Part shown: one piece after another, positions 5,800-59,585 of the stretch
How positions within the stretch are numbered: position 1 is the stretch's first letter
Layout: the number at the start of each line of letters is the position of its first letter
DNA from: Pseudomonadota bacterium
GTDB taxonomy: Bacteria > Bdellovibrionota_C > UBA2361 > OMII01
NCBI GenBank assembly: GCA_039799965.1
Contig: JBDLRS010000011.1
Location: forward strand, 1,234-65,233
Length of the DNA stretch: 64,000 nucleotides
Reading direction: 5' to 3'
Made by a program: the position numbers and the translations under genes
The notes under the pieces: generated by a model
The model's database searches: none
The model's input: the letters and a program-made list of their open reading frames with translations, nothing else
Told to the model about the DNA's origin: nothing

Positions 5800-6984
5800 A
5801 TGTCAGAAGAGTGGGCGCGCGCCCAATTCGCGGAAAATATTCAACGGATTACAACTCCAATCCCTAACGTCGGGCTGGTAAAGCTCTCCCTTGATGGAAA
5901 ATTGATTCGGGTTGTCGCTAACATTCCAGGACAGTCTGGCTCTCTCCGGGTTCTCTCGCACTTTCAAAAGAATGGTGAGCTCACGACGGAAGGGGTCGCG
6001 GGGTGTCTTGAAGTTTTTGCGCCACTCGTCGAGGAGGCTAAGGCGTCTCCCGGTGCTCACCCGAATATCGACCTTCTGTTGGGTCTCCGATCCGATCAGG
6101 CGTTGCGAGTCGAGATGGTACAAACCTCCTCCGATCTCTTCGCCAAGCTCGCTGATAGCTCCGCGAATCAAATTGAGAAGCAGGGCGCAGTGGATCTTCT
6201 CGATAAAGGTCTCGTTCGGTGTGCGGAAAAGCTCAGCAACTACACGGTCGGCGCTAACGGGGTAGAGCTTACGGGCGAAGGAACATGGGTAACGCAGAGC
6301 TACGCAGTCGCCTGCATGAATGCCGGATTCTCAGCGTTTCCGATGGTGAAGATGGGAGAGCACTTCTACGACAAGGTTCCTCTCAAGACAGAAGGATGGA
6401 GCGCCGAAGATTTTGAGAAAGCGGGCGTGCGATTAATTCCGGGATGCTTTGCTAGACGTGGCGCATACATCGGCGCCGGAACGACGATTATGCCCGGTGG
6501 GATCGTCAACATTGGCGCGTACGTTGAGGGCAGTGGTGTGATGATCGATGGTGGCGCGCGTGTCGCGACCGGCGCTCAGGTTGGTAAAGGGGTGAAGCTC
6601 GGCGCCGGCTCCGGAATCGAGGGGATCCTTGAACCAGCGGGACGCCTCCCGTCTATCATTGAAGACAACGTGCGTATCGGCGCAAATTGCGAGGTGTGCG
6701 GTATTGTGGAGGAGGGCGCCGTTGTCGCAAGCGGTGTCGTCATGGCATCCGGTAAAAAGATCTTCGATCTCCGCACCAACGCTGAGGTTGAGCCTCGGTA
6801 TATGGCGATCGGCGAAAAGTTCTACGAGATACCCGTTATCCCACGCAATAGAGTCGCCGTTTCGGGCGTGTACGCTAAGACCGAGCATCTCGGGATCGAC
6901 TGCATCGTGCTGTTAGACAAGGACGCATCGGATACCAGTTTGGCTCAGATGCCAAAGAACGCTTCGCTCTATGTGAAGCTGTAA
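5800..6984 (+). CDS. dapD: 2,3,4,5-tetrahydropyridine-2,6-dicarboxylate N-succinyltransferase (long form)
   Basis: 394 aa. The C-terminal left-handed beta-helix has hexapeptide repeats (GAYIGAGTTIMPGGIVNIGAYVEGSGVMIDGGARVATGAQVGKGVKLGAGSGIEG). It sits between dapC-like and dapE. Confidence 0.7.
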   Translation: MSEEWARAQFAENIQRITTPIPNVGLVKLSLDGKLIRVVANIPGQSGSLRVLSHFQKNGELTTEGVAGCLEVFAPLVEEAKASPGAHPNIDLLLGLRSDQALRVEMVQTSSDLFAKLADSSANQIEKQGAVDLLDKGLVRCAEKLSNYTVGANGVELTGEGTWVTQSYAVACMNAGFSAFPMVKMGEHFYDKVPLKTEGWSAEDFEKAGVRLIPGCFARRGAYIGAGTTIMPGGIVNIGAYVEGSGVMIDGGARVATGAQVGKGVKLGAGSGIEGILEPAGRLPSIIEDNVRIGANCEVCGIVEEGAVVASGVVMASGKKIFDLRTNAEVEPRYMAIGEKFYEIPVIPRNRVAVSGVYAKTEHLGIDCIVLLDKDASDTSLAQMPKNASLYVKL

Positions 6985-6999
6985 TCGGGATTATTACTG

Positions 7000-8145
7000 A
7001 TGAAGATTGAGAGCTCGGTGCAACTTACTCGGATGCTGCTCCAGGAGAACACCTGCACAGGTTCGTTCGACTCCCAGCTGTCGCTCCAAATCGCCGGCTG
7101 GCTTGAGTCGATGGGATTCGATGTGGAGTTGGTTGAGGTCGATGGGATCGTTCATCTCTGTGGCTCAATCGGCCCCAAAGATGCGCCAACGCGACTTGCG
7201 TTTGTCGGACACTACGATACGGTGGGCGCTGGAGAGGGATGGACGCATCCTCCCTTTGGCGCGGCTGAGGACAACGGAATCCTCTATGGTCGTGGCGCCA
7301 GCGATATGAAGAGTGGCGACGCCGCTATGATATTCGCGGCGGTAAAGCTCGCTACGCTCGGCGTTCGCTCCACCGTATTCCTACCAGGCGATGAGGAGAC
7401 AACCTCCCGTGGTATGCCGGCGTTGCTCGGACGAGTGGGAAGCGAATTCGATTACTGTATCTGTGGTGAGCCAACCTCAAAGAAGAGGCTCGGTGACTGC
7501 GTGAAGGTTGGCCGTCGGGGCGCTATCGGCGCACAGGTATCGCTCAAAGGGCAACGGGGACACACGGCGTATGCTGATATCACGCCAAACGTGGCCCATG
7601 CGCTGCCAGCGGTGATAACGGAGCTTGCGAAGCCATGGAACGATGCGTGCTACGGTATCGCTACAACGCTCTCCATTACAACTCTTTCCACCGACAGCAC
7701 CGCGTTGAACGTGATACCCGGTGTTGTCTCGTTCAAGTTTGATATGCGGTTCGCTCCTAATCGCTCAATTGAGGAGATGCAACGTGCGATTCTCGCGCGT
7801 CTCGACGCGCTTGGTGTGGCCTATGAAGTGGAGTGGCGGCAGGGGACCCCTCCGTATGTCACCGGCGTTGGCGCTGAGCCGACCTCTCCTCAAGGTAAGC
7901 TCATATCCATAACTCAATCCGTCATCGAGGAGATGCTTGGCATGACCCCTGCGCTCACCTGTGACGGCGGTACCAGCGATGCCCGTTTCTTGGCGTGGCG
8001 AGGTGTTCCGACGATAGAGTTCGGAGTGCCGCACGGGAATATGCACGGCTCCGACGAGTTCGTTGAAGTGAGGAACATCGAGCTGCTTGAGCAGGTGTTG
8101 GTGGAAATAGGGAAGAGGTTGCTAAAGACAAAGTCACAGCTCTAA
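7000..8145 (+). CDS. dapE: succinyl-diaminopimelate desuccinylase (M20 peptidase)
   Basis: 381 aa with M20 metal-binding motifs: GHYDTVGAGEGWTHPPF, GRGASDMKSG, LPGDEE. Confidence 0.8.
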   Translation: MKIESSVQLTRMLLQENTCTGSFDSQLSLQIAGWLESMGFDVELVEVDGIVHLCGSIGPKDAPTRLAFVGHYDTVGAGEGWTHPPFGAAEDNGILYGRGASDMKSGDAAMIFAAVKLATLGVRSTVFLPGDEETTSRGMPALLGRVGSEFDYCICGEPTSKKRLGDCVKVGRRGAIGAQVSLKGQRGHTAYADITPNVAHALPAVITELAKPWNDACYGIATTLSITTLSTDSTALNVIPGVVSFKFDMRFAPNRSIEEMQRAILARLDALGVAYEVEWRQGTPPYVTGVGAEPTSPQGKLISITQSVIEEMLGMTPALTCDGGTSDARFLAWRGVPTIEFGVPHGNMHGSDEFVEVRNIELLEQVLVEIGKRLLKTKSQL

Positions 8146-10075: not shown

Positions 10076-10687
10076 GAGAATAGTGTAGGCACCTCCGGAT
10101 CTGCGGAGGACCGCGAACCAGTCACTTTTGCCAGTAGGGTTAAGATAGAAGGGGATATCCTTTCCGCGTACCCCGAAATCAAAGTAGGATCAAGGGCACC
10201 ACACTCAATGACGGACCCTCGGGCTATTGAGAAATAGCGCCGTTTATCGGCTTGTTTGAGCTTGCCTGTCTTTTCCCCATGCGAGGAGTATACCGGACTT
10301 GGAGAATGTGCGCGATCCTTTATCTTCAAAACTGTCCCATGTATGTACCTAACGGGCTATAAATATCGATCGCTGGGGCAGAAAGTTGCTAGATCGGGTA
10401 CGTTTACGCGGAAATACGCGATTCATCACTGAAACAATGGGTTATGCACCATCAGCAGTCATGTGGTGCCCACTCGATTCCAGGATGAGCCCTCTTCATT
10501 CACTCGTTCTGGCCGGAAGCGCTGCGCTCACCGGGTGCCTCTTTAAGCCTGACCTCGGAAGACCCTATACCCGCGAAAATTTCGTTCATTCCGGGCCTGT
10601 TGGGAAACGGGCACTATCAGATTGCGTGCGTATGTTCTGATCCCCCTCACACGCACACCCGTCTCGCCGCGCTATACTTTGAGATCT

Positions 10688-11596: not shown

Positions 11597-13246
11597 GTGA
11601 GTGTAGATACGAGCGCCTTTCATTTTAAACGAAGCAGAGATTCCGTTTCGCGTTCGGAGGTCATCGATTCCCTCGGGAGCGATGGCGTCTTTGATATCGT
11701 TGTTGTGGGAGGAGGCATTCACGGCGCCTCCGTTGCTCGACTCGCCGCAGGTGTCGGATTTAAGACAGCCCTTCTTGAAAAATACGATTACGCCGCCGCG
11801 ACCTCAAGTCGTAGCTCTAAGATGGCGCACGGTGGACTCCGTTACCTTGAGCTGCTTGATTTTGAGCAGGTGTTCGAGGGGATTAAAGCGCGTGAGGAGA
11901 TGTTCGAACACGTCGGCAACCTTGTAAGACCCTGCGAATTCCTTATTCCGGTTCCGAAAGGGGCATGGTTCTTCAAATTGAAGCTTGGGATCGGTCTCTT
12001 CCTCTATGACCTGTTGGTTAAAAAGCGGGAGCGTCGCCATCGATGGATTCCGCGAGCCAAACTAACCTTTCCGGGATTTCACAGTGGTCGCGATGACCTG
12101 ATGGGATGCTTCGTCTATACCGACGGTATCATGAGCGACGCGCGGCTGGTGATCGATAACGTTATCGCGGCTCGTCGATACGGAGCGACCTGCCTTAACT
12201 ATTGCGAAGTAACTGGCAGGAAGGAGGTGGAGGCGGGCAACTATGAGATCTCAGCGCTCGACACAAAGGGGGGCGCAAACCTTACGCTCAAGACCCGTCT
12301 TGTCATCAATTGTGCGGGGCCGTGGGCCTCAACGGTAGCGGGCGAGTTAGGGGGAGAGCCGCGCCCTCTCAAGTTCAGTCGCGGCTCTCATATTGTCTTT
12401 ACTACACCGTGGAGGGGCCCGAGCCTCTTTCTGCCGATGCCGGGTAAGGCCCGATACTACTTCGTCTGGCCCCACCATGCGGGTGCGATGGTGGGTACCA
12501 CAGAGCGGGAGGTTTCAAGCGTTGAACTCGATCCTCTTCCTTCAAAGGATGAGATTGAGGAGATCATGAGCCGTTTAGAGCGGGATATTCCGGACGCAGG
12601 TCTCAATCGCTCCTCCGCGTGCTATGCATTCGCTGGTATTCGGACCCTTCCGATTCGGGGAGGGAACGCTCAGTCCACCGTTCTTTCACGGAAGCATATC
12701 TGGACCCATAGCAAGGGTGTGCTCACCCTATTAGGGGGAAAGTACACAACGGCTTCATGGACAGCGATGGAGGGGATTAAGGAGGCCGCGCGAATTCTCG
12801 GCGCACCGCTGAAGCCGGAGGTTATGAGAGATAGGGCGGACCTTAGGGATCTGCCCGGGAGCCTCTCGGTTGTGGAATATGAGGAATTGTCACGATCCCT
12901 GGCAGGCCACGGAGTAGGGCCAGAGGATCGGGCCCGACTTTTGAGTCGATACGGAAAGCGCCTGGGGGATGCCTATCTTGAATTCGTGGATGCCGCGCCG
13001 AAGAAGTTGATCGAACTAGAGACCATGATCGCTCTGGATACTGAGCAAGCGGAAAGCCTTGAGGATCTTATGCGTCGACGACTTGAACTTGAGTACACTT
13101 CGGGGCACGGAGAGGAGTACCTCGCCATGATTGGGGAGGTGTATACACGAATGCGGCCTAACGTTGATGTCGAGCTTGAGAAACAACGCTACCGTGAGCG
13201 GATGAGAGAGATTGACTCCCTTCTGGGTGCCGCTAGCGGCCTCTAA
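11597..13246 (+). CDS. glpD: FAD-dependent glycerol-3-phosphate dehydrogenase
   Basis: 549 aa. N-terminal FAD-binding motif DIVVVGGGIHGASVARLAA. DAO domain followed by the C-terminal alpha-helical GlpD domain. Confidence 0.75.
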   Translation: MSVDTSAFHFKRSRDSVSRSEVIDSLGSDGVFDIVVVGGGIHGASVARLAAGVGFKTALLEKYDYAAATSSRSSKMAHGGLRYLELLDFEQVFEGIKAREEMFEHVGNLVRPCEFLIPVPKGAWFFKLKLGIGLFLYDLLVKKRERRHRWIPRAKLTFPGFHSGRDDLMGCFVYTDGIMSDARLVIDNVIAARRYGATCLNYCEVTGRKEVEAGNYEISALDTKGGANLTLKTRLVINCAGPWASTVAGELGGEPRPLKFSRGSHIVFTTPWRGPSLFLPMPGKARYYFVWPHHAGAMVGTTEREVSSVELDPLPSKDEIEEIMSRLERDIPDAGLNRSSACYAFAGIRTLPIRGGNAQSTVLSRKHIWTHSKGVLTLLGGKYTTASWTAMEGIKEAARILGAPLKPEVMRDRADLRDLPGSLSVVEYEELSRSLAGHGVGPEDRARLLSRYGKRLGDAYLEFVDAAPKKLIELETMIALDTEQAESLEDLMRRRLELEYTSGHGEEYLAMIGEVYTRMRPNVDVELEKQRYRERMREIDSLLGAASGL

Positions 13247-13265
13247 TCCCGCTAAAAAAGAATGG

Positions 13266-13393
13266 CTATTCGTGAAATCGAGTGGGTAGGGCTCGGTGTG
13301 ATCCCAACGTGCACGTGGAAAGGCGCTATGTATAGGCCAAAGCAAGGGGTTACGTTACACCTATGCTCGTTGGCATCCAGTCGATTCCACGAA
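13266..13393. repeat. R2 MITE-like repeat, copy A (about 128 bp, imperfect TIR CTTCGTGRAATCGASTGG)
   Basis: Aligns by eye to 15021..15168. The shared core is TCGTGAAATCGAGTGGGTAGGGCTCGGTGT-ATCCC-ACGTGCACGTG...GCCAAAGCAAGGGTTTACGTTAC...GCTCGTTGGCA. Confidence 0.6.
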
Positions 13394-13629
13394 GAGCCAC
13401 AAAAAAATCAACAGGTGCTGCGAGCCTTTTGTCGTAAAACGAGTGTAGCATTATTTTCCTTACGGACTATGGAGTAGCTCGGGTACAGCGGTCTGACCAA
13501 AAGTAGCCCCGCTACGGAGTAAAGGGAAATACGGAGCAAAGGGAAAAGGATGTTGCGCCACAATAGCGATCGCAGCATGGTAAGGGTGCCGTACCGGATC
13601 AGAGGACGAACAGCGTAAGGGGCATATGC

Positions 13630-14892
13630 ATGGAACCTAGCGGGGTGATGAAACGAAACGTGTTGTGTAAATCTATCGAGGCTGTAGTTTCGATATCAGC
13701 TTCATTTATTCAATTAGCTATCATCGCTCGCTCATTTGATCCTGTTGTTGTTGGCCACTATCAGTTCGCGCTTGCGTGGCTCTTCTTAGTCTCTGCGCTT
13801 TCATGCTTCGGCGGGATAGCCATGGTAGCTACACGAGAGCTTTCACAGAGGGGGGAAACTTCGCGCGGCTCACTTTTCTCCAACGCTGTCGCTCTCCAAT
13901 CGTTGATCGCTGTTCCACTCTGCGTTGGCTGTCTCTCGATATTCTTCAACTCAGCTTATTTTAGGCCCCTTGCTCTACCACTCAGTATCGGTACCATCAC
14001 GCTTTGTTGCGCGATGATTCTTCAACTATCTCAGGCGTTGCTGGTGAGCGAGGAGAGGATACCGAACGTAGTAATCGCATCAATCATCGGACACGGTGTA
14101 GCCACCTGCGCCATTATAGGTGCTGCATCCTATGGACTTTCAGTCACCGCTCTTGTAGCGGGATGGGCCACGTATAACGCCATCAACGGCATCGTACTTG
14201 TATTCCAGGCGAGCGCGTGGCGGTTGCTTCCACTGCGGTATGTTGCAATGGCCGATTTGCGGGGCTTAACCCTCGAAATGCTGCCGGTTTTAGTCATGAT
14301 TCTGGCCACCCATTTGTATGTTCGCGTTGACGTCATTATGCTCGATCACTACACAAACAAAGGGGAAGTAGCGACGTATAGTGCGGGATATGTGTTCCTT
14401 GATCAGCTCATGATCCTTTCACAGGCGATGATGGGTGCCGTATTTCCTAATTTCGCTCGCGCCTGTGTGACCCGAGGCCCGGATTTTCAGGTTCTTTACC
14501 GCGGAACAGTGGTGTTGTTTTTGAAATACCTGGTTCCCCTCGCCCTCCTCATAGCTCTTTTCTCTCAATCCTTGCTCGGAGTACTATTTGGAGCGGAATA
14601 TTCGACCGCCTGGCTCTCGTTGTCGGTGCTCATGATCGCTGCTGTGTTCGCCTGGCTGAACGGCCCCTCAGGTACGATCTTTATCTCGCTCAAAAAGCAG
14701 CACATCTACATGTGCGCAACCCTCCTCAGCCTGGGCATCAATATCGTTGGGAACGTCCTCTTTATTCCCTATCTTGGTGGTGTTGGGGCGGCGGTCTCAA
14801 CTGTTTTAACTGAGATGACTATTTGTGGATTTTGCTTGTGGTGGATTTATCGAGAGACGGGATACCTCCCCTGGATGCGTCCACGATTGTGA
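13630..14892 (+). CDS. polysaccharide biosynthesis protein, MOP/Wzx-family flippase-like polytopic membrane protein
   Basis: 420 aa with about 12 hydrophobic segments. The overall pattern is that of oligosaccharide flippase/PST-family proteins. Confidence 0.55.
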   Translation: MEPSGVMKRNVLCKSIEAVVSISASFIQLAIIARSFDPVVVGHYQFALAWLFLVSALSCFGGIAMVATRELSQRGETSRGSLFSNAVALQSLIAVPLCVGCLSIFFNSAYFRPLALPLSIGTITLCCAMILQLSQALLVSEERIPNVVIASIIGHGVATCAIIGAASYGLSVTALVAGWATYNAINGIVLVFQASAWRLLPLRYVAMADLRGLTLEMLPVLVMILATHLYVRVDVIMLDHYTNKGEVATYSAGYVFLDQLMILSQAMMGAVFPNFARACVTRGPDFQVLYRGTVVLFLKYLVPLALLIALFSQSLLGVLFGAEYSTAWLSLSVLMIAAVFAWLNGPSGTIFISLKKQHIYMCATLLSLGINIVGNVLFIPYLGGVGAAVSTVLTEMTICGFCLWWIYRETGYLPWMRPRL

Positions 14893-15020
14893 TGGGATAT
14901 CGCTCCGGCACATCTCTCAATCGACCCAGAGTGCCTGCCCCGTCCTGTAATGGGGCCGCATCCAGCGCGGGGAAAACAGGGGGGCCTTTCCTGGAATCAC
15001 GTGGGTAAAATAAGTAGGGA

Positions 15021-15168
15021 CTTCGTGAAATCGAGTGGGTAGGGCTCGGTGTTATCCCGACGTGCACGTGCACGTTCACGTTCACGTGGAAAGGGAGCTA
15101 TGCCTGAGCCAAAGCAAGGGTTTACGTTACCTCTGTGCTCGTTGGCACCCACTCCATTCCTCGATAAG
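15021..15168. repeat. R2 MITE-like repeat, copy B, with expanded CACGTG/CACGTT hexamer tract
   Basis: Direct-orientation match to 13266..13393. Carries an internal (CACGTK)n expansion at 15071..15097. Confidence 0.6.
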
Positions 15169-15292
15169 CCAATAAGTAACTCATTGGAGCCTGGTCGCAG
15201 GTTTAAGTAAAAAGATAGGCCGTTGAATCTTTTGAAGTCACCATAACTCGTATGGCGACCCTGCAAGAAGCAGTTCATCGATACGAGAGCAA

Positions 15293-18200
15293 ATGACTAA
15301 GGCATCGTTTAAACATAGAAATGCCCAATCAGAGTCCCTGTATCCTCACGGAGTTTCTGACCTACGTGCGACATCCTTTACTCAACGGGATGCACAAGCG
15401 TTTGCGCGCGACCTTCCACAAGGGTTACGTCGTGTGCGGGCAACCCACAACAGCGCTCTACGGCGTCACGAGCAGGGGGATATCAGCCGTAAGGAGCTGG
15501 TGAGCATAGCGATGGAATTTCGGAACTATGCTGACGAGATCCGCCAAGGTGGACGCGGATCCTTTGTAAAGGTCAGCCGCAAAATTGAGAGTATGGCATC
15601 CGCCTTGGAGAGGCTCTCTCGGGCAGATCTCGGGCCAAGCTCCGTGCGACCGTTGTCTGAGATCCTGACCCCGGAGATAGACTTATTGCTACGCAAAGTG
15701 GCCGCGAGTGAAGCCGTTCAAAAGGCTTTGAATACCGGAAATGCTGGAATTGCCCACCAGCACCTGAGGCGCTCTTCTCGCTACGCAAAAACGCCTTCGG
15801 GGAGCACGGTTATCTTTTTAGCGAGTCTCGAAAGTGGAAGACGGGCGCTCGTTGATTACTCAAAAGAGACCAGATGCGAAGCGAAGGCGATGGTTGTGGC
15901 CATGACCCCACCGAATGGACCCACCCTCCTTACTCATTACTTGCCCCGACCGCCCGGGTTGCATATAGCCCTTGATGCCGGGGGGCTTAAAGTTCGTGTG
16001 GAGCAGGTCAAATCTCAGCTTGAGTTCCTTGCTGCTTATCATGAAGCTCGCGAGGGGTATGTTGCCCAAAATCGCGAACAGTTACAGACGATCGCTCGTA
16101 GGGAGGGGCGAGAGGACCTGGCATGCTCTCCAGAGTCGATTGATGCGATTATTCGATCTGCGTTTGGCCTCTCTGAAGGATACTTGAGCCTTTGGAGCTA
16201 TGCCAACATCGTGGGGTATTACCCCTTAGTTTCGGAGGAAGTTAAGGATCTGATAGAAGCCGTCTCACCTAGAGGCTTGGACTATCTCTCGAAACACACC
16301 ATTGCTGCATTAGCTCAAGGTAGGTCCCCCGATCTTGAGGATCCCGAATCACGACAAGCACTCACGAAGCAACTCCTGACTCAGCCTTGGAGCAGCATCT
16401 CAACCCCGTTGTCAACTTACCATCTTTGGAAACTAGAGGACCATATCGATACCAGCGTAGCTCCCGACTCGACATGGTCCGTGGCGACCGTGTGGGCACA
16501 TGTACATCCGTTTTTGAGCACAGTAGTCCCGCAGAGCTTTGAAGATGTTGTCCCCGATGGATACAACATCTTCAGCGCCACTGACGTTTTGAGAGCTATC
16601 GGTGCGCAAGGCCTACCTAGTTTCATTTCGAATGCCATCAGTGACGTGACAGGTTGGCTGAAGCGTTATGAACAAAAAAATAAAGCTCACTCGAAGAGTA
16701 TAGATATGGCGCGCACCCTGCTCGAGGAGGGGGAAAACCGCGAGGGATTTGCCACCCTCGATCGAGCCGTCCAAGATGTTCTCGAGTTTCGCTCGGCGAT
16801 ACAGACTAAACGCCAATTCGCTAGCTCTGAATCTGCGCGGTTGTCTTTTGAGATTGACAAACATGAACTGCTACTCTCCCGCACTCGCGATGAGATACAG
16901 CAAGGTAAGGTCGTACTGCGATTATTACAAGAAGCCAAGAATGCAGAGGATATTATCGGTGCACTTTTTCATGGGTTATGGCCAGGTGGAACTTTCGGAG
17001 AGAGCCAGCGCGACATGTTTAATCGCCGATGGTACCATGCTCAGTACCAAAGCGGCTCGCAGAAGCCATCGATCTCCATAATCGAGAACCCGTTTGGATC
17101 TTTTTATGCCCTCGGAGACGGCGATAGCGGCTTAACGAACCAACGCTACGAGGGACCGGGTGAAAGTCGCACGCCAACTGTGCGGGAAACTATGTGGCTC
17201 CATGGCGATCGATTGTCGGCCGTGGAGATAGTTATGTCGCATGACGCCAAGATGCAAAAGATTCCTCAATCTATCTGCGACATGGTGATCCTCGATCAGG
17301 TGTCCGGTAGTAGACGTTTCGCTGTTCGTCCCCCCAGCTCTTTGGAGTGGCTCATAACCAAGCGCACCTCAGCCGTAGAAGCGGCGCTGGGGCACCAGAT
17401 TCCAATCAGCACGCGAATGGTTGGAGATGTCCCGTACACCTTTGTGGAGTGGCCAAATTCCGGGACACTTCAACCTGAGAGCATCCGAAAGATACTAAAG
17501 CTCTCGGAGGAATTCGCCATCGATTCGTGGAAATTGCTTACGAAATTCGACCGCTTCTATCGGGCCGCCCCTCATTACGAGAAGATCAATCCTCTCCACG
17601 TACATATGCCGCGTGTCTGCATTAAAGACCCGAAACTTATGGAGGAGTATCTCGGTGCAGCGAGCGCCATCTCGGATCAAGCGCAGGATCTGCCCAAAGC
17701 GCTAGCTTCGCTGTTGAGGATAAGCGAGAACAGGGGTGAGACCTCGGTGGAAGTACGGTGTGCAGTCTGCTTCATTACACATGCACTCGCCCTCTTCTCG
17801 TCACATGCCGAAGAGGGTAATCGCACCGCAATCATCCTGCGTCTGATGCTCAACTCAGAGGAGTTTCTCTGTTCCTTGAAAGAGGCTATCGCGTCCGAAT
17901 CTTTTTATTTTCGGACTTTTGAAGCGTGGGAAAAAAAACTCACGTCCTTCTTCCTTGAGGAGTACGCAGGTTGCCTCGAAACAAAGCTGCACGAAGCAGG
18001 GGTATTCGACGGCATCCTGGTGGTCAAGGCTGCGGAGGTAGCATGTCAAGGCTCTGGTGAAGATGGCGCTACGTTCATCACAGCCGTGCAACAGGAGCCG
18101 CCTACACGGGTGACTGTTTCGGTCGATATAGACCGATTTTTGCGTGCTTTTAACGATGCATACCCCATATTCGCGGACGCATTGCGTCGTTTTAGCCCAG

Positions 18201-18484
18201 TTGTTGATAAGAGCGATACCTTTCCCCGTGCAAGGCAAGGTGACACTTCGTATCTTCAGATAAGAGAGGAGCTTTTTGCCACTCTTAATAACCACGACTT
18301 CGAGACCGAGCTGCCGAACCGGTTGACCACTCTGCGTCAGAGAGGTTTGAGCTTGCGATTTTGGGATCTGGCTATCGGCCCGGGGGATGACCATGCGGCA
18401 GTAGCCAAGTTCAATCAAGCACTTCTCAAGTCGCTTGGCCTCCTCTGTTACTCGACTGATGAGCGCCCCTTCCGCTGCCGATGA
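15293..18484 (+). CDS. large hypothetical protein (1063 aa) on AT-richer DNA, no recognisable domain
   Basis: Single long ORF with no strong antisense ORF. No signal peptide, Walker, HExxH or repeat motifs were found by eye. Composition is visibly AT-richer than the flanks. Confidence 0.5.
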   Translation: MTKASFKHRNAQSESLYPHGVSDLRATSFTQRDAQAFARDLPQGLRRVRATHNSALRRHEQGDISRKELVSIAMEFRNYADEIRQGGRGSFVKVSRKIESMASALERLSRADLGPSSVRPLSEILTPEIDLLLRKVAASEAVQKALNTGNAGIAHQHLRRSSRYAKTPSGSTVIFLASLESGRRALVDYSKETRCEAKAMVVAMTPPNGPTLLTHYLPRPPGLHIALDAGGLKVRVEQVKSQLEFLAAYHEAREGYVAQNREQLQTIARREGREDLACSPESIDAIIRSAFGLSEGYLSLWSYANIVGYYPLVSEEVKDLIEAVSPRGLDYLSKHTIAALAQGRSPDLEDPESRQALTKQLLTQPWSSISTPLSTYHLWKLEDHIDTSVAPDSTWSVATVWAHVHPFLSTVVPQSFEDVVPDGYNIFSATDVLRAIGAQGLPSFISNAISDVTGWLKRYEQKNKAHSKSIDMARTLLEEGENREGFATLDRAVQDVLEFRSAIQTKRQFASSESARLSFEIDKHELLLSRTRDEIQQGKVVLRLLQEAKNAEDIIGALFHGLWPGGTFGESQRDMFNRRWYHAQYQSGSQKPSISIIENPFGSFYALGDGDSGLTNQRYEGPGESRTPTVRETMWLHGDRLSAVEIVMSHDAKMQKIPQSICDMVILDQVSGSRRFAVRPPSSLEWLITKRTSAVEAALGHQIPISTRMVGDVPYTFVEWPNSGTLQPESIRKILKLSEEFAIDSWKLLTKFDRFYRAAPHYEKINPLHVHMPRVCIKDPKLMEEYLGAASAISDQAQDLPKALASLLRISENRGETSVEVRCAVCFITHALALFSSHAEEGNRTAIILRLMLNSEEFLCSLKEAIASESFYFRTFEAWEKKLTSFFLEEYAGCLETKLHEAGVFDGILVVKAAEVACQGSGEDGATFITAVQQEPPTRVTVSVDIDRFLRAFNDAYPIFADALRRFSPVVDKSDTFPRARQGDTSYLQIREELFATLNNHDFETELPNRLTTLRQRGLSLRFWDLAIGPGDDHAAVAKFNQALLKSLGLLCYSTDERPFRCR

Positions 18485-18614
18485 AGTGGCGTACCCCGCA
18501 AGATCTCATGTTTCTGTTTCTCAACCGCCAGAGATCCTCTGTAGGGCTGAGTAAGTTCCTCGTATAAGGGCGATCCTTATCTGCGGGTTGCAATTTCTCC
18601 GCCCTGCTAGGGTG

Positions 18615-19340
18615 TCACTCTATTGACTCTTTAAAATAATTGTCACAGGCACTAAAGCATTCTTTATGCCACTTGTTAGCGATTTGCTTCTCTTGTTCCG
18701 TAGATGCCTCAGCTGAAAACTCATTCGCATACTGAGTACAGAGAGCATAACAAAGTTCGTACTTGTTCATGCCAGTTGCAACTGTCACGAGTACTTCGTA
18801 AGCCAAGTTCATATCCCTAAATACCATTTGAGCCACCGTCCAGGGCCTGGATATACTTTTATGGACTGCCTCAACCGGCTCAAAGCTACATTCACACCCT
18901 GTAGTTCTTTCCTTACTGGTTGCTGTAGGTCCGCATCCTTCAGGTGGCATGGTTTTCTTGCCATCATCAAGTTCTGAACAAGGGAATGGGGGGCCAAACA
19001 CAAAGTCTTGCGTGCTCGTCGGATTCGCTACTATACACCGACCTCCATCTAATCGAACTACGACTACAGCATGACCAGCACCTTCACAATACATCTTGTA
19101 TATCTGACAATTGAGTCCCCATTCGCCGCACCTTCTCTTAAATCCATTGGCATAATCTCCACAAATATTATACGCATTGTATGGACCCAGCTCTCTATGA
19201 ACTTCATTCGTTAAGCTATAAATCAAGCAGTTGCTGGGTTCCGCCGCTGCAGTACCCGTATCTGCATGTGCCACGATAGGGGGGCAAAGTAATGCTATGC
19301 ACAGGAGCCTCAAGTTATTAAGCATTGTATGTTTAATCAT
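18615..19340 (-). CDS. secreted Cys-rich protein with transglutaminase-like cysteine peptidase motifs (BTLCP/LapG-like candidate)
   Basis: ATG at 19340 gives signal peptide MIKHTMLNNLRLLCIALLCPPIVAHA. Motifs NICGDYANG (C-x-D-Y-A) and GHAVVVVRLDGG match the Cys and His boxes of the TG-like fold. This is the most AT-rich stretch of the window. Confidence 0.4.
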   Translation of the reverse strand: MIKHTMLNNLRLLCIALLCPPIVAHADTGTAAAEPSNCLIYSLTNEVHRELGPYNAYNICGDYANGFKRRCGEWGLNCQIYKMYCEGAGHAVVVVRLDGGRCIVANPTSTQDFVFGPPFPCSELDDGKKTMPPEGCGPTATSKERTTGCECSFEPVEAVHKSISRPWTVAQMVFRDMNLAYEVLVTVATGMNKYELCYALCTQYANEFSAEASTEQEKQIANKWHKECFSACDNYFKESIE

Positions 19341-19529
19341 CGTAGCCTGACCTATTCTCTGACGTTGCTCCGGCAGGTGCATGTCTATTTGAAAACCTAG
19401 CCCTGAGTTACATGAACGTCATTTCGATCGCCGAGCTTTAGCCCTTTTATTCGAAAGGAAACTTTTTTGGTCCAGGATCTTAAGTTCACAAGCGCCAAGG
19501 CCGACTCTCCTTGTGAGGAGAAGAAAGGT

Positions 19530-20129
19530 ATGGTGCCACAAAACGTAGGACCGGCGGAGATGCTCACGTTCGGAATATTAGTCGGAGCCATGGGCCTCGG
19601 TCTCGTTGTTGGGATCGTGTACAAGCTTTTTGCGGGAGCTCGGAGCCCAGGTTTTGTGTCCGGGGAACGAGGTCGAGCTGAGGCTTTGTTGAACGATTTC
19701 TCCGGCAGGATATCACTGATCGAGCATAAGCAACGCGTCCTGAGTGTCTACACTAACGAATACTTTACAACCTTCCATGAAGCGGGGTGGGGAGAGCTCC
19801 AAGCGCTCATAGAAAATCTTAGGACGATTGAAACATCGCTTCGAGTTATGTGTGAGCAGCGTCGTTTCAGACAAGTGGTTCAGGTGTGTCAGTATCTGTT
19901 GGGTTCGTGCTCTCCGGAGTCAGCTCGTGCGATTGTTACCGCGTACGAGGGGCTCTCCTTGGTCGCGAATTGGCGCGAGGAATCGAGGGTTATTCTTCTT
20001 CGACTCATTCAGGCTACAACTACTTCGGCCGAGAAAACCGCGGAGTTTGGTGTCACACGAAAGCGCATGACTCGCAGGCCAACCCTGCTGTCCCTTGCAG
20101 AGCTTAGAGATTCGCTCGGTGATTTTTAA
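19530..20129 (+). CDS. hypothetical single-pass membrane protein
   Basis: One N-terminal TM segment (MLTFGILVGAMGLGLVVGIVYKLFAGA) followed by a soluble domain. The start is uncertain (19467 or 19530). Confidence 0.3.
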   Translation: MVPQNVGPAEMLTFGILVGAMGLGLVVGIVYKLFAGARSPGFVSGERGRAEALLNDFSGRISLIEHKQRVLSVYTNEYFTTFHEAGWGELQALIENLRTIETSLRVMCEQRRFRQVVQVCQYLLGSCSPESARAIVTAYEGLSLVANWREESRVILLRLIQATTTSAEKTAEFGVTRKRMTRRPTLLSLAELRDSLGDF

Positions 20130-20274
20130 AAAACCGAACGCTGGCCTTGAGCAGTGCTTGTACGCACAGGTGAGCTTAGCACGGATAGTAGAGCATCCGA
20201 GCCGGAGTTAAAGGGTTTCGCTCCGGTATAGGAGAGCGATCAAGAGCAGCGCCGTAGCGCGTCCACTGTTTGCA

Positions 20275-27826: not shown

Positions 27827-29284
27827 ATGTCACATAACATCGACGAACTTGCTGATTGGGATAAACGGATACTGGAGCTCGTTCACACGTACGGGCTCAA
27901 CTGCTATCCCCAAGAGTTTGAGATCTGCGATCACAACGAGATGTTGGGATATATGGCGTACACCGGCATGCCATCGCACTATCCACACTGGTCATACGGT
28001 AAATCGTTCGAACGTCAAAAGACCATGTATGACTACGGTGTGTCGGGTCTTCCGTACGAGATGGTGATCAATTCAAATCCCTGTCTTGCGTACTTAATGC
28101 GTGATAATTCACTCCTGTTACAGGTGCTCACTATAGCCCACGTATACGGCCATAACGACTTTTTCGCAAACAACTTCACCTTTACCTCGGGAACCAAAGC
28201 GGAGCACGTTCTTCAGTCCTTTAAGAGCCACGGACAGAGAATTAGCTCGTACCAAGAGGATCCCTCGATCGGTGTCGAGGCTGTCGAGAACATGATCGAT
28301 CACGCGCACGCGATCTGTTACCAACGGTCTCGAAATCTCGCTATTACACAACTCTCTCAGGATGAGCAGGTTCTTCGGGCGTGGGAGCGATCGCAGCCAG
28401 CGGCGGACCCGTGGCGAGAAATTCATCCGGCGAAGGAGTATAAGCCACCTAATCTTACACGGGTTCCAGCGGAGCCGCAGGAGAATATCCTGCAGTTTAT
28501 CGCCAAGTATAATCCGTACCTCCCTGAGTGGAAGAGGGACATCCTGTTGATCGTTGACGCGCAGACGCAGTACTTCATGCCGCAGATGGACACCAAGATC
28601 ATGAACGAGGGATGGGCGAGCTACTGGCATCATAAGATCCTTAACGAGCTTAAGCTCCCGCAAGGGATGCACCTTGAGTTCCTCGTACGGCACAACCAGG
28701 TGTTGCGCCCCCACCCAGGTGGGCTCAATCCATATCACCTCGGATTCGTTCTGTGGCACGATATCGAGCGTCGCTGGAATCAGGGAGACATTGGTAGAGA
28801 GTGGTCGGACGATGAGCCGCCAACCGCTGAAGGGATCAAAGACGAGAACGAAACCCCGGGTCGTAAAAAGATCTTTGAGGTACGCGAAGCGGACCGTGAC
28901 CAGTCCTTCCTTCGCCGATTTCTTACACGCGAGATAATGGAGGAGCTGCACCTCTTCCAGCACGAGCGCCGGGGAAAAGATCGCGTTATCACCAAGGTCG
29001 CCAGCGAAGAGGGGTGGCGCGAGGTCAAAGAGAACCTTATCAGGAACGTTGGTACCGGCTCTATTCCGGTTATAAAGATCGAGGATGCGGATTTTGGGAA
29101 GAGCCGCATACTCTATATGAAGCACTACCATGACGGTCGAGATCTTCAGCTTGAGTACGCGGAGCACACGCTTAAGCACGTGGCGGCTCTGTGGGAGCGT
29201 GAGGTAGTGCTCGAGACCTCGATTAACGGCAAGGAGTCGCTTCTTAAGTTGGTTGGCGATTCCCTCAAAATTGAGCGACTCTAG
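27827..29284 (+). CDS. spoVR: SpoVR family protein
   Basis: 485 aa third member of the prkA-yeaH-spoVR triad. Its TAG stop lies inside the CTAG end of the MITE. Confidence 0.85.
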   Translation: MSHNIDELADWDKRILELVHTYGLNCYPQEFEICDHNEMLGYMAYTGMPSHYPHWSYGKSFERQKTMYDYGVSGLPYEMVINSNPCLAYLMRDNSLLLQVLTIAHVYGHNDFFANNFTFTSGTKAEHVLQSFKSHGQRISSYQEDPSIGVEAVENMIDHAHAICYQRSRNLAITQLSQDEQVLRAWERSQPAADPWREIHPAKEYKPPNLTRVPAEPQENILQFIAKYNPYLPEWKRDILLIVDAQTQYFMPQMDTKIMNEGWASYWHHKILNELKLPQGMHLEFLVRHNQVLRPHPGGLNPYHLGFVLWHDIERRWNQGDIGREWSDDEPPTAEGIKDENETPGRKKIFEVREADRDQSFLRRFLTREIMEELHLFQHERRGKDRVITKVASEEGWREVKENLIRNVGTGSIPVIKIEDADFGKSRILYMKHYHDGRDLQLEYAEHTLKHVAALWEREVVLETSINGKESLLKLVGDSLKIERL

Positions 29285-29469
29285 CAGGGTGGTGAAAAAT
29301 GGTTCCGTCGTGAGCATTTTGAAAGTTTTGACGAAACAAGGCGGAGATGACGAAAAAACCGGAGGCGTATCCACCGAGATACGTTGAGGATTTTTTCGGC
29401 AGCTCCAACGAAGTTGCAGTCACACTATCGAAATGCGCAACAGGAAATCATTTTTCACCACCCTGCTAG
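29281..29469. mobile_element. 181-bp MITE-like element, copy 1 (core 29285..29465) with CTAG on both flanks
   Basis: Perfect TIR CAGGGTGGTGAAAAATG / CATTTTTCACCACCCTG. Nested internal stems (ACGTATC-CACTGA-GATACGT; CGAAAAAA/TTTTTTCG). Sits between convergent spoVR and pntB. Confidence 0.8.
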
Positions 29470-37603: not shown

Positions 37604-37636
37604 TACGTTCACGTTTACGTGCACGAGCACGTTCAT
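37604..37636. repeat. ACGTKC-type hexamer repeat block (GGGTACGTTCACGTTTACGTGCACGAGCACGTTCA)
   Basis: Near-identical (2 mismatches) to 59538..59574. Related tracts occur at 15071..15097 and, inverted, at 59447..59486. Confidence 0.5.
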
Positions 37637-37727: not shown

Positions 37728-39125
37728 ATGCCCAACTACGTTTCGATTCACGATATTTCCAACGATAAGGTGCCTGTGGGTACGCTCCAGCTCGCTGGCT
37801 GGATCCGAACTCATCGGCAGTCGAAGCGAGTGTCCTTCATCGAGTTGTCGGACGGAACCTCGGTCACGAATCTCCAACTTGTGGTCGACCCGCAGTTGCC
37901 GGCCTATGCGGAGAACGCTTCAAAGCTCTCAACGGGCGCTTCCATTAAGGTTTCAGGAGAGTTGGTCGTGTCTCCGGCAAAGGGGCAGAAGTATGAGTTC
38001 CAGGTTAAGGAGCTTGAGCTCCTGGGAGAGGCTGACCCTGAGATCTACCCACTTCAAAAGAAAGGGCACTCCCTTGAGTTTCTCCGTGAGCAACTTCACC
38101 TTCGACCTCGAACCGCTACGATGGGCGCGGTGCTGCGCATTCGTTCCGCGGCGGCGTTCGCCGTTCATAAGTTCTTTACTGAACGTGGATTCTTCTACAT
38201 CCACACCCCTATTATCAGCACCTCTGATTGTGAGGGAGCTGGCGAGATGTTTCACGTCTCGACGTTCGATCCGGAGAACCCTCCGCGTTTGAACGGCAAG
38301 GTGGACTTTTCTCAGGACTTCTTCAAGGAACCGGCGAGTCTCACCGTTTCAGGGCAACTTGAGGGAGAGATCTGCGCGATGGGTCTCTCAAAGATCTACA
38401 CCTTCGGTCCAACATTCAGGGCCGAGAATTCGAACACGACACGACATCTCGCCGAATTCTGGATGATCGAGCCAGAGATGGCTTTCTACGAGTTGCAAGA
38501 CAATATGCTTCTTGCGCAGGAGTTCGTTCAGGATGTTTTGAAGCAGGTGCTCGCCTCCTCCCGTTCTGAGCTTGAGTTCCTCGCCTCACAGGAGTGGGCG
38601 CAGGAGGGACACCTCGATAACCTTCGTCGCGTTGCGGAGACCCCGTTTACGACGATGGATTACACCGACGCCATTCGCATCCTTGAACAGAGTGGCAAGG
38701 CTTTCGAGTATCACGTGAAGTGGGGGATCGATCTTCAATCTGAGCATGAGCGATTCCTGACGGATGAGTACGTGAAAGGTCCAGTTACCGTTGTGAACTA
38801 CCCGAAGGACATTAAAGCGTTCTATATGCGCCTCAATGAGGACGGTAAGACGGTACGAGCGATGGATGTGCTCGTTCCTCGGTTGGGGGAGATCGTAGGT
38901 GGGTCGCAACGTGAGGAACGCCACGATGTTCTCCTTGAGAAGATCCGCGCCATGGGGCTCGATGAGCGTTCCTACTGGTGGTATCTTGAGCTTCGCAAGT
39001 TCGGTACCGTGCCTCATTCCGGTTTCGGGCTCGGCTTTGAGCGGTTGCTTATGTACCTCACGGGGATGACAAATATCCGAGATGTTATCGGATTCCCTCG
39101 ATTCCCAGGGTTCGCCAAGTTCTAG
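37728..39125 (+). CDS. asnS: asparagine--tRNA ligase
   Basis: Class IIb aaRS with OB-fold N-domain. Motif 3 region GFGLGFERLLMYLTGMTNIRDVIGFPRFPG. ATG (MPNYVSIHDI) is preferred over the track GTG at 37494. Its TAG stop lies in the MITE CTAG. Confidence 0.8.
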   Translation: MPNYVSIHDISNDKVPVGTLQLAGWIRTHRQSKRVSFIELSDGTSVTNLQLVVDPQLPAYAENASKLSTGASIKVSGELVVSPAKGQKYEFQVKELELLGEADPEIYPLQKKGHSLEFLREQLHLRPRTATMGAVLRIRSAAAFAVHKFFTERGFFYIHTPIISTSDCEGAGEMFHVSTFDPENPPRLNGKVDFSQDFFKEPASLTVSGQLEGEICAMGLSKIYTFGPTFRAENSNTTRHLAEFWMIEPEMAFYELQDNMLLAQEFVQDVLKQVLASSRSELEFLASQEWAQEGHLDNLRRVAETPFTTMDYTDAIRILEQSGKAFEYHVKWGIDLQSEHERFLTDEYVKGPVTVVNYPKDIKAFYMRLNEDGKTVRAMDVLVPRLGEIVGGSQREERHDVLLEKIRAMGLDERSYWWYLELRKFGTVPHSGFGLGFERLLMYLTGMTNIRDVIGFPRFPGFAKF

Positions 39126-39310
39126 CAGGGTGGTGAAAAATGGTTCCGTCGTGAGCATTTTGCGAGTTTTGACGAAACGAGGCGGAGACGACGAAAAAAC
39201 CGGAGGCGTATCCAATGAGATACGTTGAGGATCTTTTCGGCGGCTCCAACGAAGTTGCAGTCAAACTATCGAAATGCGCAACAGGAAATCATTTTTCACC
39301 ACCCTGCTAG
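39122..39310. mobile_element. 181-bp MITE-like element, copy 2 (core 39126..39306), CTAG flanks
   Basis: Same perfect TIRs as copy 1, with a few internal substitutions (for example TTGCGAG vs TTGAAAG). Sits between asnS and the ornithine aminotransferase gene. Confidence 0.8.
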
Positions 39311-44202: not shown

Positions 44203-44262
44203 CTAGCATTAGTCTACCCCCAATTGAGAGGCTATTGAAGAGGTCTCTTTGAACCACGGGCT

Positions 44263-44451
44263 TGAGCAGGGTGGTGAAAAATGGTTCCGTCGTGAGCATT
44301 TTGAGAGTTTTGACGAAACGAGGCGGAGACGACGAAAAAACCGGAGGCGTATCCACTGAGATACGTTGAGGATTTTTTCGGCGGCTCCAACAAAGTTGCA
44401 GTCAAACTATCGAAATGCGCAACAGGAAATCATTTTTCACCACCCTGTTAG
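44263..44451. mobile_element. 181-bp MITE-like element, copy 3 (core 44267..44447), flanks TGAG/TTAG
   Basis: Same TIRs (right end CACCACCCTG). Lies in the divergent upstream region of the T4CP-like ATPase and the coiled-coil gene. Confidence 0.75.
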
Positions 44452-49519: not shown

Positions 49520-49893
49520 AACCACACCGCTCCTTATCAGCCCTAATCCCCGCACAATATCCACCCAACGCCGAAGCGTCCAGTTACGAGGACGATACCC
49601 CACATTACCGAGCTTCGACACCTCAAAACACGCGCGGAAAGTCAAGCAATCAAACTCAAAAATCATCGAATCGTTTGCGCAGGGGAAACAATCATAAGGC
49701 GCAGAGATTGCGTGTGAATCGAGTGGTATATGCGCATCCTCATACCCACCCGACGGTGCGTAGAGGCGATATACTTCACCCGAGGTTCCCTCTTGATCTC
49801 ACAAGGGAAACTGCTTTACCCTTCCCCACAAATACGAAACAGAACACGGGCTTGCTCTCGCAAAACGCAGCTCTTTACTTGGAAAGATGTACT

Positions 49894-50364
49894 ATGACCA
49901 CCAAAGCTACAGAAAAAATCATCGAAGCTCTCACGCAACTCGTAGAGGGATTCGCGGAGCTTCAAGAGAAGCTTGAGGAGGACTACGATCCCGATATGGA
50001 GACCGAGTCTGACGATGACGATACTGATAGCGACGATGAAGAGGGCGCGACAGGTATAGAGGAGGCCATCGTTACCGAGATCAAGGCGGCCGTTGAGTCG
50101 GTCATCGAAAACGAGGACTGCGCCCCTGAGGATCTCGCATCCATAGTGTCAGCCCTTACTGGCGCCCTCGAGGAGATCGCTCCAGAGGTATTCAGCCACG
50201 GCGAGGCTGAGGAGGAAGAGGAAGAAGAGGAGGAGGAGTACGAAGAGGTCGACGACGAAGACTTCGAGGAGGACTACGACGAGGACGAAGACGAGGACGA
50301 AGACGAAGACGAGGACGAGGACGAGGACGAAGACGAGGATGAGGACGAAGACGATGATGACTAG
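49894..50364 (+). CDS. highly acidic protein with C-terminal poly-Asp/Glu tail
   Basis: ATG at 49894 (MTTKATEKIIEAL...). The last ~60 residues are almost pure D/E (EEEEEEEEEEYEEVDDEDFEEDYDEDEDEDEDED...DDDD), encoded by a GAGGACGAAGAC-type microsatellite. Confidence 0.5.
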   Translation: MTTKATEKIIEALTQLVEGFAELQEKLEEDYDPDMETESDDDDTDSDDEEGATGIEEAIVTEIKAAVESVIENEDCAPEDLASIVSALTGALEEIAPEVFSHGEAEEEEEEEEEEYEEVDDEDFEEDYDEDEDEDEDEDEDEDEDEDEDEDEDDDD

Positions 50365-50542
50365 GTCTTAAAGGTCCCCTCTGATTCAGTTGCTAATCTT
50401 TCACTTGAGTACCAGACAAAGGCCCAAGTGGAAGATTAGGAACAGCCCGCGGGGGCGGGCTAAAAACAAGAATACTAACTTGTCAGTGTCCGGCATGCCG
50501 GTGAAGAATTATTTACCTAACGGGCTATTTACCTAACGGGCT

Positions 50543-50731
50543 ATAGCAGGGCGGTGAAAAATGGTTCCGTCGTGAGCATTTTGAGAGTTTTGACGAAACG
50601 AGGCGGAGACGACGAAAAAACCGGAGGCGTATCCACTGAGATACGTTGAGGTTTTTTTCGGGGGCTCCAACGAAGTTGCAGTCAAACTATCGAAATGCGC
50701 AACAGGAAATCATTCTTCACCACCGTGATAG
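50543..50731. mobile_element. 181-bp MITE-like element, copy 4 (core 50547..50727; degenerate TIRs), ATAG flanks
   Basis: Left end CAGGGCGGTG and right end CACCACCGTG each carry one substitution. Sits between the convergent acidic-protein gene and the M16 peptidase gene. Directly preceded by two tandem TTTACCTAACGGGCTA units. Confidence 0.7.
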
Positions 50732-59377: not shown

Positions 59378-59446
59378 ATGCTACCTAAACCTAGCAGGTT
59401 GCCATACGTTGCGGGTTGGAGAAACGGAAAAGAGCTATTCTACTCC

Positions 59447-59574
59447 GTAAACGTTCTCGTAAACGTGAACGTGAACGTACACGAACGAAGGTGCCGACCT
59501 TCTAACCATTAGGACCAGATATACGCTTATCTCCCGGGTACGTTCACGTTTACGCGCACGAGCACGTTCACGTG
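59447..59574. repeat. inverted pair of ACGTKC hexamer-repeat arms (59447..59486 and 59538..59574) in the ppc upstream region
   Basis: Left arm CGTAAACGTGAACGTGAACGTACACG is the reverse complement of the right-arm core GTACGTTCACGTTTACG. The spacer is about 50 bp. Confidence 0.5.
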
Positions 59575-59585
59575 CCCCCTGGTAG

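Follow-up and report, generated by a model that had tools for sequence, protein, structure and literature searches.

R2 repeats that bracket an orphan Wzx-like flippase gene are probably separate insertions of an ISL3-derived MITE

Background

At the left edge of an island of lower GC content, in a 64-kb stretch of DNA from a genome of the Bdellovibrionota (the whole stretch is called the window hereafter), a single flippase-like gene is bracketed by two copies of a short repeat, R2, in the same orientation. Such an arrangement raises the question of whether the two repeats and the gene between them form one unit, which could have been brought in by a transposase or could be lost again by recombination between its ends, or whether the two repeats, called copy A and copy B here, reached their places separately. 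The original prediction for this locus favored a composite cassette with possible on/off variation of a surface polysaccharide. Here we describe the repeats and the gene that they enclose, compare the locus with that of a sister strain and of more distant relatives, and relate R2 to known families of mobile elements.

Results and discussion

The R2 repeats and their termini

Two repeats in direct orientation are indeed present on the + strand, within a few bases of the predicted limits (13266-13393 and 15021-15168). With boundaries set from the termini and the target duplications, copy A spans 13264-13398 (135 nt, ends GGCTATTCGTGAAATCGAGTGGG ... CCAGTCGATTCCACGAAGAGCC; nhmmer 1.7e-44) and starts 17 nt past the stop codon of a glpD-like gene, and copy B spans 15017-15170 (154 nt, ends GGGACTTCGTGAAATCGAGTGGG ... 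CCCACTCCATTCCTCGATAAGCC; nhmmer 2.6e-46), between the stop codon of the flippase gene and the start of a large ORF. Besides these two full copies, the window contains one partial copy on the + strand (10395-10491), which comprises the 3′ half of the repeat, reaching from the hexamer tract as far as the 3′ terminus CCCACTCGATTCCAGGATGAGCC, and corresponds to positions 51-147 of a profile built from four copies (nhmmer, E = 5.9e-07). Global alignment of A and B gave 115 matches and 20 mismatches (85%), with 19 extra nt of CACGTK hexamers inserted in B, where the (ACGNNN)n hexamer array (15058-15089) is longer than A's tract by these 19 nt. The longest run common to both copies in an exact-run comparison was a block of 31 nt (13269-13299 in A and 15022-15052 in B, + strand), followed by runs of 13 and 12 nt. 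Sub-patterns of R2 with lengths of 28 nt and 23 nt each occurred exactly twice in the 64 kb, with 0.00 occurrences expected from 100 shuffles.

The termini of the family follow the consensus GG(C/G)TCTTCGTG(A/G)AATCGAGTGGG, and the terminal inverted repeats (TIRs) that had been predicted are real and, as predicted, imperfect. In copy A, GGCTATTCGTGAAATCGAGTGG pairs with CCAGTCGATTCCACGAAGAGCC at about 20 of 22 positions; pairing in copy B is below that of A, and its 3′ arm is more decayed, with 3 mismatches to the family consensus. Copy B is framed by a target site duplication (TSD) of 8 bp, AATAAGTA, which is found at 15009-15016 on the left and at 15171-15178 on the right. The sequences flanking copy A (AAAAGAAT and ACAAAAAA) are identical at only 5 of 8 positions, and its TSD is therefore decayed or ambiguous. 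With lengths of 135 and 154 nt, the copies have no coding capacity for a transposase, and the ORFs that overlap them are mechanical and belong to no family.

The enclosed gene and the island

Only one gene lies between the repeats, and it is of the MOP/Wzx-like type that had been predicted. The ORF at 13630-14892 (+ strand, 420 aa) matched the Pfam family Polysacc_synt (PF01943; 3.4e-15, 56.7 bits vs a cut-off of 28.2) as well as Polysacc_synt_3; MurJ stayed below its cut-off, and the match to the NCBIfam model Oglyco_Wzx reached only 22.5 of the 720 bits that its cut-off demands. The protein is MEN9845083.1 at NCBI and bears the name "PST family polysaccharide transporter" at JGI, and homologues go by the label O-antigen/teichoic acid export protein; in the PDB, the sequence had no match. 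Identical copies of this protein and of that encoded by the adjacent glpD-like gene (MEN9845082.1 at NCBI) are also found on JGI metagenome contigs. No polysaccharide-synthesis genes were found beside the flippase gene, the neighbors being glpD and hypothetical ORFs, so that a tie to any particular surface polymer is unsupported, and we describe the gene as an orphan Wzx/PST-type (MOP superfamily) transporter gene.

The glpD-like gene (11597-13246, + strand), which encodes an FAD-dependent glycerol-3-phosphate dehydrogenase, is the last conserved gene before a lower-GC variable island (13247-20274) that holds the flippase gene, a large ORF of 1063 aa (15293-18484, + strand), and ORFs of 255 aa and 220 aa. 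The GC content is 0.50-0.53 over about 13-20 kb, compared to 0.55-0.58 on either side, and the order in the window is glpD-R2A-flippase-R2B-1063 aa-255 aa-220 aa-purF-purL-PrkA. In relatives with a glpD of 79-86% identity, both the flippase gene and the large ORF are missing downstream of glpD; in one of them (L142, glpD 79% identical), the order is glpD-[281 aa]-[109 aa]-purF-purL-PrkA. The drop in GC and the relatives without these two genes after glpD both bear out the prediction that the locus is the left border of an AT-richer island. The variable unit is thus the entire island of about 7 kb and not the gene bounded by the R2 copies.

The large ORF belongs to no known family and appears to encode a soluble protein; in a set of 5.8 billion proteins, it is represented by just 4 clusters, three of these clusters being non-identical. 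Its homologues in two other contexts (L144 and L145) are beside none of flippase, glpD, or R2, and an exact-protein look-up of its 943-aa form found nothing on record. An island that combines this very rare protein of 1063 aa with an orphan flippase may interest those who study strain variation in lake bacteria.

Insertion history of the two copies

A sister strain provides the most direct view of how A and B came to flank the flippase gene. This strain is represented by a single short-read contig (Logan contig L014) from another sample, which has 95-98% DNA identity to the window and the same order of Ysc84, glpD, flippase, and large ORF. It carries copy A at the orthologous site, with about 97% identity, and at the site of copy B it reads GGGTAAAATAAGTAACTCATT, in which the target octamer occurs once and no element is present, that is, a clean empty site. 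As L014 has the flippase gene and copy A together with an empty B site, copy B probably inserted alone, after the flippase gene was already in place; and since A and B are 15% different, B is no local copy of A. Copy A would then be the older insertion, made before the two strains split and common to both, and copy B a later one, which likely arose from a different master copy after the split and in the window strain only. The presence of B in one strain and its absence in the other thus points to transposition since their divergence. Precise excision of B could in principle have left the empty site in L014, which would then not be the ancestral state; we regard this as less likely. The description of R2 as a MITE-like family holds up in view of its TIRs, its 8-bp TSDs, its dispersed copies, and the empty site for B.

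Composite structures built from MITEs are known. The MITEs around class 1 integrons in Acinetobacter and the "integron mobilization units" are examples in which two MITE copies bracket a cargo, and a single target duplication bounds the whole structure. The R2 pair would be a similar structure if its members were the outer ends of a composite transposon and a transposase had brought in copy A, the flippase gene, and copy B as one cassette. Two elements of the same family with usable outer termini do enclose exactly one gene at the island edge, and orthologues of the flippase that are 74% (L015 and L016) and 65% (L017) identical occur in unrelated neighborhoods, which, as these contexts differ among relatives, indicates that the gene relocates. 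However, none of these orthologues has R2 nearby, and three further island genes lie outside the R2 pair. Unlike the Acinetobacter composites, moreover, the R2 pair has no single bounding duplication: copy B has a perfect TSD of its own, the sequences just outside the pair do not match each other (AAAAGAAT vs AATAAGTA), and the sister strain carries the flippase gene without B. A composite origin is thus hardly credible for this locus, and the empty B site in particular goes far to refute the cassette of the original prediction. As to whether relatives have the flippase at this locus without any flanking repeats, the finding went halfway, in that L014 has the gene with one repeat (A) and not two.

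Because the two copies probably landed separately, they are best regarded as ordinary mobile-element litter and not as the borders of a mobile or switchable cassette. Both hit AT-rich intergenic DNA, and that an orphan Wzx-like gene stands between them is probably a coincidence; the insertions were probably neutral or nearly so. These results remove a tempting but unsupported story of a mobile or switchable flippase cassette, and are of little importance beyond annotation.

Relationship of R2 to ISL3-family elements

We then considered where R2 occurs elsewhere and to which elements its ends are related. In three metagenome-assembled genomes (MAGs) labelled Bdellovibrionota, 9 sites, on 9 different contigs, match a 20-mer taken from the 5′ end of R2. 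Many of these sites are no more than about 100 nt away from where the contig ends, a pattern that a dispersed repeat should produce. Two of the R2-carrying MAGs have isolate names made of "ME" and a date, which we take to stand for Lake Mendota. Copies in Bdellovibrionota MAGs also have perfect 8-bp TSDs, namely AATCTTAT (L009), GTTTTTGT (L012), and CCTATTTT (L013). A match in Paraburkholderia (L005) was rejected as a copy of R2, as it matches the 20-mer only and is due to chance.

More than 120 stretches of metagenome sequence, from many samples, contain a degenerate 22-nt terminus, GGSTCWTCGTGRAATCGASTGG, and an ISL3 transposase gene was within 500 nt of this terminus in 57 of 120 loci among the matches listed, with its start most often about 277-282 nt inside the terminus in these loci. 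Two ORFs adjoining the terminus matched the Pfam family DDE_Tnp_ISL3 (8.7e-68 and 5e-70) as well as HTH_Tnp_ISL3, and one of them also matched the ISL3 zinc ribbon and, above the cut-off, the NCBIfam model transpos_ISL3 (5e-88). Full-length copies of the ISL3 family were recovered at two loci (L084 and L119), the first of which is a complete insertion sequence (IS) of 1379 bp with both termini and a perfect 8-bp TSD, AAAATAAA. With tblastn, no ISL3 transposase was found in the window or among the loci fetched from the Bdellovibrionota MAGs. R2 was probably mobilized in trans by an ISL3-family DDE transposase that is encoded elsewhere in the genome or was formerly present there. On insertion, it duplicates 8 bp of an AT-rich target.

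Published elements of this family show the same features. The inverted repeats (IRs) of the ISL3 elements ISArsp7 and ISPst2 start with GGCTCTTCG or GGGT, and their direct repeats are 8 bp long and often AT-rich (PMC6305408); R2 has both such an IR start and an 8-bp target duplication, and thereby resembles these IS elements and those at L084 and L119 in IRs, duplication length, and AT-rich targets. Unlike them, R2 is without a transposase, is 10 times shorter, and presumably relies on a transposase in trans. Among MITEs, a 187-nt element of Microcystis, which ends in GGCTCTTCG and has repeats of 8 nt, was linked to ISL3 transposases in earlier work (PMC11448079). This element, from Microcystis aeruginosa PCC 7806, is like R2 in being non-coding, about 130-190 nt long, able to form a stem-loop via terminal repeats starting with GGCTCTTCG, flanked by 8-nt direct target repeats, multi-copy, and mostly intergenic; in both cases, the insertion sites vary among near-identical strains, and the termini are common with those of elements that bear an ISL3 transposase. 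The two are unrelated in internal sequence and host phylum, the R2-bearing MAGs being labelled Bdellovibrionota, and the conserved terminus is about 23 nt in R2 compared to the 9 nt reported for the Microcystis MITE (PMC11448079). In addition, R2 has an (ACGNNN)n hexamer tract and long forms of 458-600 nt, unlike the Microcystis element. Methanosarcina acetivorans is listed as the host of another ISL3-derived MITE, which derives from ISMac21 and is, like R2, short (179 bp), non-autonomous, and of low copy number, with 22-nt IRs (PMC3852290); judged by its published description, it differs from R2 in its archaeal host and a reported direct repeat of 7 bp.

As the TSDs, the empty site, the ISL3 termini, and the literature all agree, R2 is very probably a MITE derived from the ISL3 family, with A and B as separate insertions that do not form a unit. 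A repeat family of uncultured freshwater genomes (MAGs labelled Bdellovibrionota), which had been unannotated, would now be placed among the ISL3-derived MITEs.

We also considered whether the R2 hairpins might have been exapted as cis-regulatory RNA or DNA structures, namely terminators, stabilizers, or protein-binding sites that control the flippase gene and the large ORF. Both strands of R2 can form a long and stable terminal hairpin (z = -3.2 to -4.2 vs shuffles), the two copies lie between genes and in the orientation of these genes, and the ISL3-type MITE of Microcystis is co-transcribed with a host gene and associated with altered expression (PMC11448079), which we counted in favor of such a role. 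The stem, however, is simply the transposon TIR, and the presence or absence of B in near-identical strains speaks against a required function. Rfam gave nothing in or near R2, either at gathering thresholds over the whole window or, for 13200-15300, at E ≤ 1, and a known structured RNA was accordingly dropped as the identity of R2; when 13000-15700 was scanned for promoters and terminators, no promoter-like sites turned up, and no terminator-like sites lay inside R2. A regulatory role of the two copies thus seems quite unlikely. The hairpin of copy B is 122 nt upstream of the ATG of the large ORF, and the gap between the flippase gene and the large ORF is 400 nt with B, compared to about 83 nt in the gene calls of L014. 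The most that can be inferred for the R2 pair is a passive effect, in which the hairpin of B stands before the large ORF and the two copies offer a weak substrate for deletion.

Recombination between the two copies

Direct orientation and the exact block of 31 nt could make the locus prone to deletion, in that homologous recombination between A and B would drop the flippase gene in some cells and lead to heterogeneity in a surface polysaccharide. RecA-dependent recombination in E. coli has a minimum of about 23-27 bp and depends steeply on length, and 31 nt is just above this minimum. The block is the only tract common to A and B that is long enough for homologous recombination, since the copies are only 85% identical and no second tract exceeds 13 nt. 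This lineage can evidently do without the flippase, since L014 lacks the part that corresponds to window positions 14737-14945 (209 nt), by which the flippase loses its last ~50 codons and the stop codon and becomes a product of 402 aa. Because more distant homologues span the full 420 aa, this change is a deletion in L014, and it suggests that the flippase is dispensable or decaying in that strain. This sole structural variant seen was not mediated by R2, however, and the contigs that span the locus (L001, L002, and an NCBI contig of 77 kb with the genes for glpD and the flippase) are all intact. No deletion variant was present in the recovered contigs, and exact-protein look-ups of glpD and the flippase led to contigs that were either intact or broken at a repeat.

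Some of these broken contigs deserve comment. Two Logan contigs stop inside the 31-nt block, namely L003, which equals window positions 13270-15050, and L138, which ends near 13298. L003 was rejected as an excised circle, as it ends at a branch of the de Bruijn graph (k of about 31, assumed) and L138 ends in the same block. With ends at the branch point of a k = 31 graph, the two contigs say nothing on deletion either way, and the R2 repeats explain why short-read assemblies break at this locus.

An excised circle of 1753 bp would have no way back, so that the outcome would be a loss and not an on/off switch, and no polysaccharide-synthesis genes adjoin the flippase gene. A deletion-prone cassette that generates heterogeneity among cells is therefore very unlikely. 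Judging from the repeat sequences, deletion between A and B via the 31-nt block is possible as a rare and irreversible event and unlikely as a switch.

Long forms and hexamer arrays

R2 also exists in long forms. In the Bdellovibrionota MAGs, these are 458-600 nt in length and have the same ~48 nt at the 5′ end and ~90 nt at the 3′ end as the short forms, with an extra sequence of about 250-390 nt between inverted (ACGNNN)n arms (...GAACGTGCTCGTGCACGTAAACGTGAACGTACCCGAA...). In the short forms of the window, both arms are collapsed to one palindromic tract. The long form could be R2 with a second element nested in it, or the short form could be a derivative that arose by internal deletion; either would account for this relationship.

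The hexamer tract is not confined to R2. An array of about 40 nt, CGGGTACGTTCACGTTTACG[T/C]GCACGAGCACGTTCA, is almost identical in the window genome and in other Bdellovibrionota MAGs, and we consider it unlikely that the (ACGNNN)n tract in R2 is a separate functional or mobile module. If it were one, as a protein-binding or regulatory site or a nested MITE, ISL3-type MITEs would spread it, including to the positions beside the flippase gene and the large ORF. Further occurrences of the array are in the MAG loci and at three loci from metagenomes. In the window, where 0.015 hexamer arrays are expected by chance, it occurs alone at 37605-37634, near a tRNA gene, while the arrays at 59443-59486 and 59540-59575 form an inverted pair.

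Structural variation around the flippase gene

Comparison with the sister-strain contig L014 revealed a 209-nt deletion (near L014 position 4491, equivalent to window 14737-14945) that takes out the C-terminus and stop codon of the flippase gene (13630-14892) and results in a 402-aa product (P0001). This deletion is a structural variant without involvement of R2, the ISL3-type MITE whose copies A (13264-13398) and B (15017-15170) bracket the gene. Upstream of the flippase, a 17-nt unit, TACGGAG(T/C)AAAGGGAAA, is tandemly duplicated at 13513-13546, and L014 carries a single copy of it.

Two Logan contigs assembled from the short reads of one run, L003 (equivalent to window 13270-15050) and L138 (with its end near window 13298), both terminate inside a 31-nt block that is common to R2-A and R2-B. 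These breaks are an assembly effect caused by the repeat, and contigs broken in this manner could give the false impression that a unit has been excised.

In a relative's locus (L015, 713-5926), a rhodopsin gene and a group of carotenoid/retinal genes (Bac_rhodopsin, Amino_oxidase, SQS_PSY, Lycopene_cycl, and BCD) lie roughly 2 kb away from the flippase orthologue, which has 74% identity.

The island between glpD and purF

The flippase lies in a variable island of lower GC (about 13247-20274) between glpD and purF. On the contig of another relative (L142), this interval is occupied by two different small ORFs; protein identity to the window is 96% for purF, yet only 79% for glpD. The island also contains a large ORF of 1063 aa (15293-18484), the product of which is apparently soluble and for which no family match was detected in Pfam or NCBIfam. 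A search of 5.8 billion proteins returned only four clusters for this ORF, and its homologues (39-54% identity, about 1200 aa in length) reside in unrelated genomic contexts.

Other repeats in the window and R2-like copies elsewhere

Besides R2, the window holds what looks like a further MITE, R1, with four copies of 196 nt each (29274-29469, 39115-39310, 44256-44451, and 50536-50731) that share 93-95% identity with the reference copy and have terminal inverted repeats of about 48 nt beginning CTAGCAGGGTGGTGAAAAATGG.

Hexamer arrays of the form (ACGNNN)n, for which the chance expectation in the window is 0.015, were located at 37605-37634, at 59443-59486 and 59540-59575, and within R2-B (15058-15089). 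The array, about 40 nt long, is almost identical in sequence to the inverted arms within the long R2 forms of the Bdellovibrionota MAGs. Fragments of the hexamer array also directly abut, on the upstream side, the 5′ ends of R2 in two MAG contigs (L011 and L012), a layout that suggests insertions in clusters or nested within one another; L012 additionally carries a truncated R2-like copy (6942-7265) 2 kb from its first copy. Within the window, the solitary array (37605-37634) is situated 125 nt away from a tRNA gene, and the arrays at 59443-59486 and 59540-59575 lie in an intergenic region, inverted relative to each other and separated by about 51-53 nt.

Separately, a long run of GAG/GAC/GAA codons at 50203-50370 gives the ORF at 49675-50364 an acidic, Asp/Glu-rich C-terminal tail.
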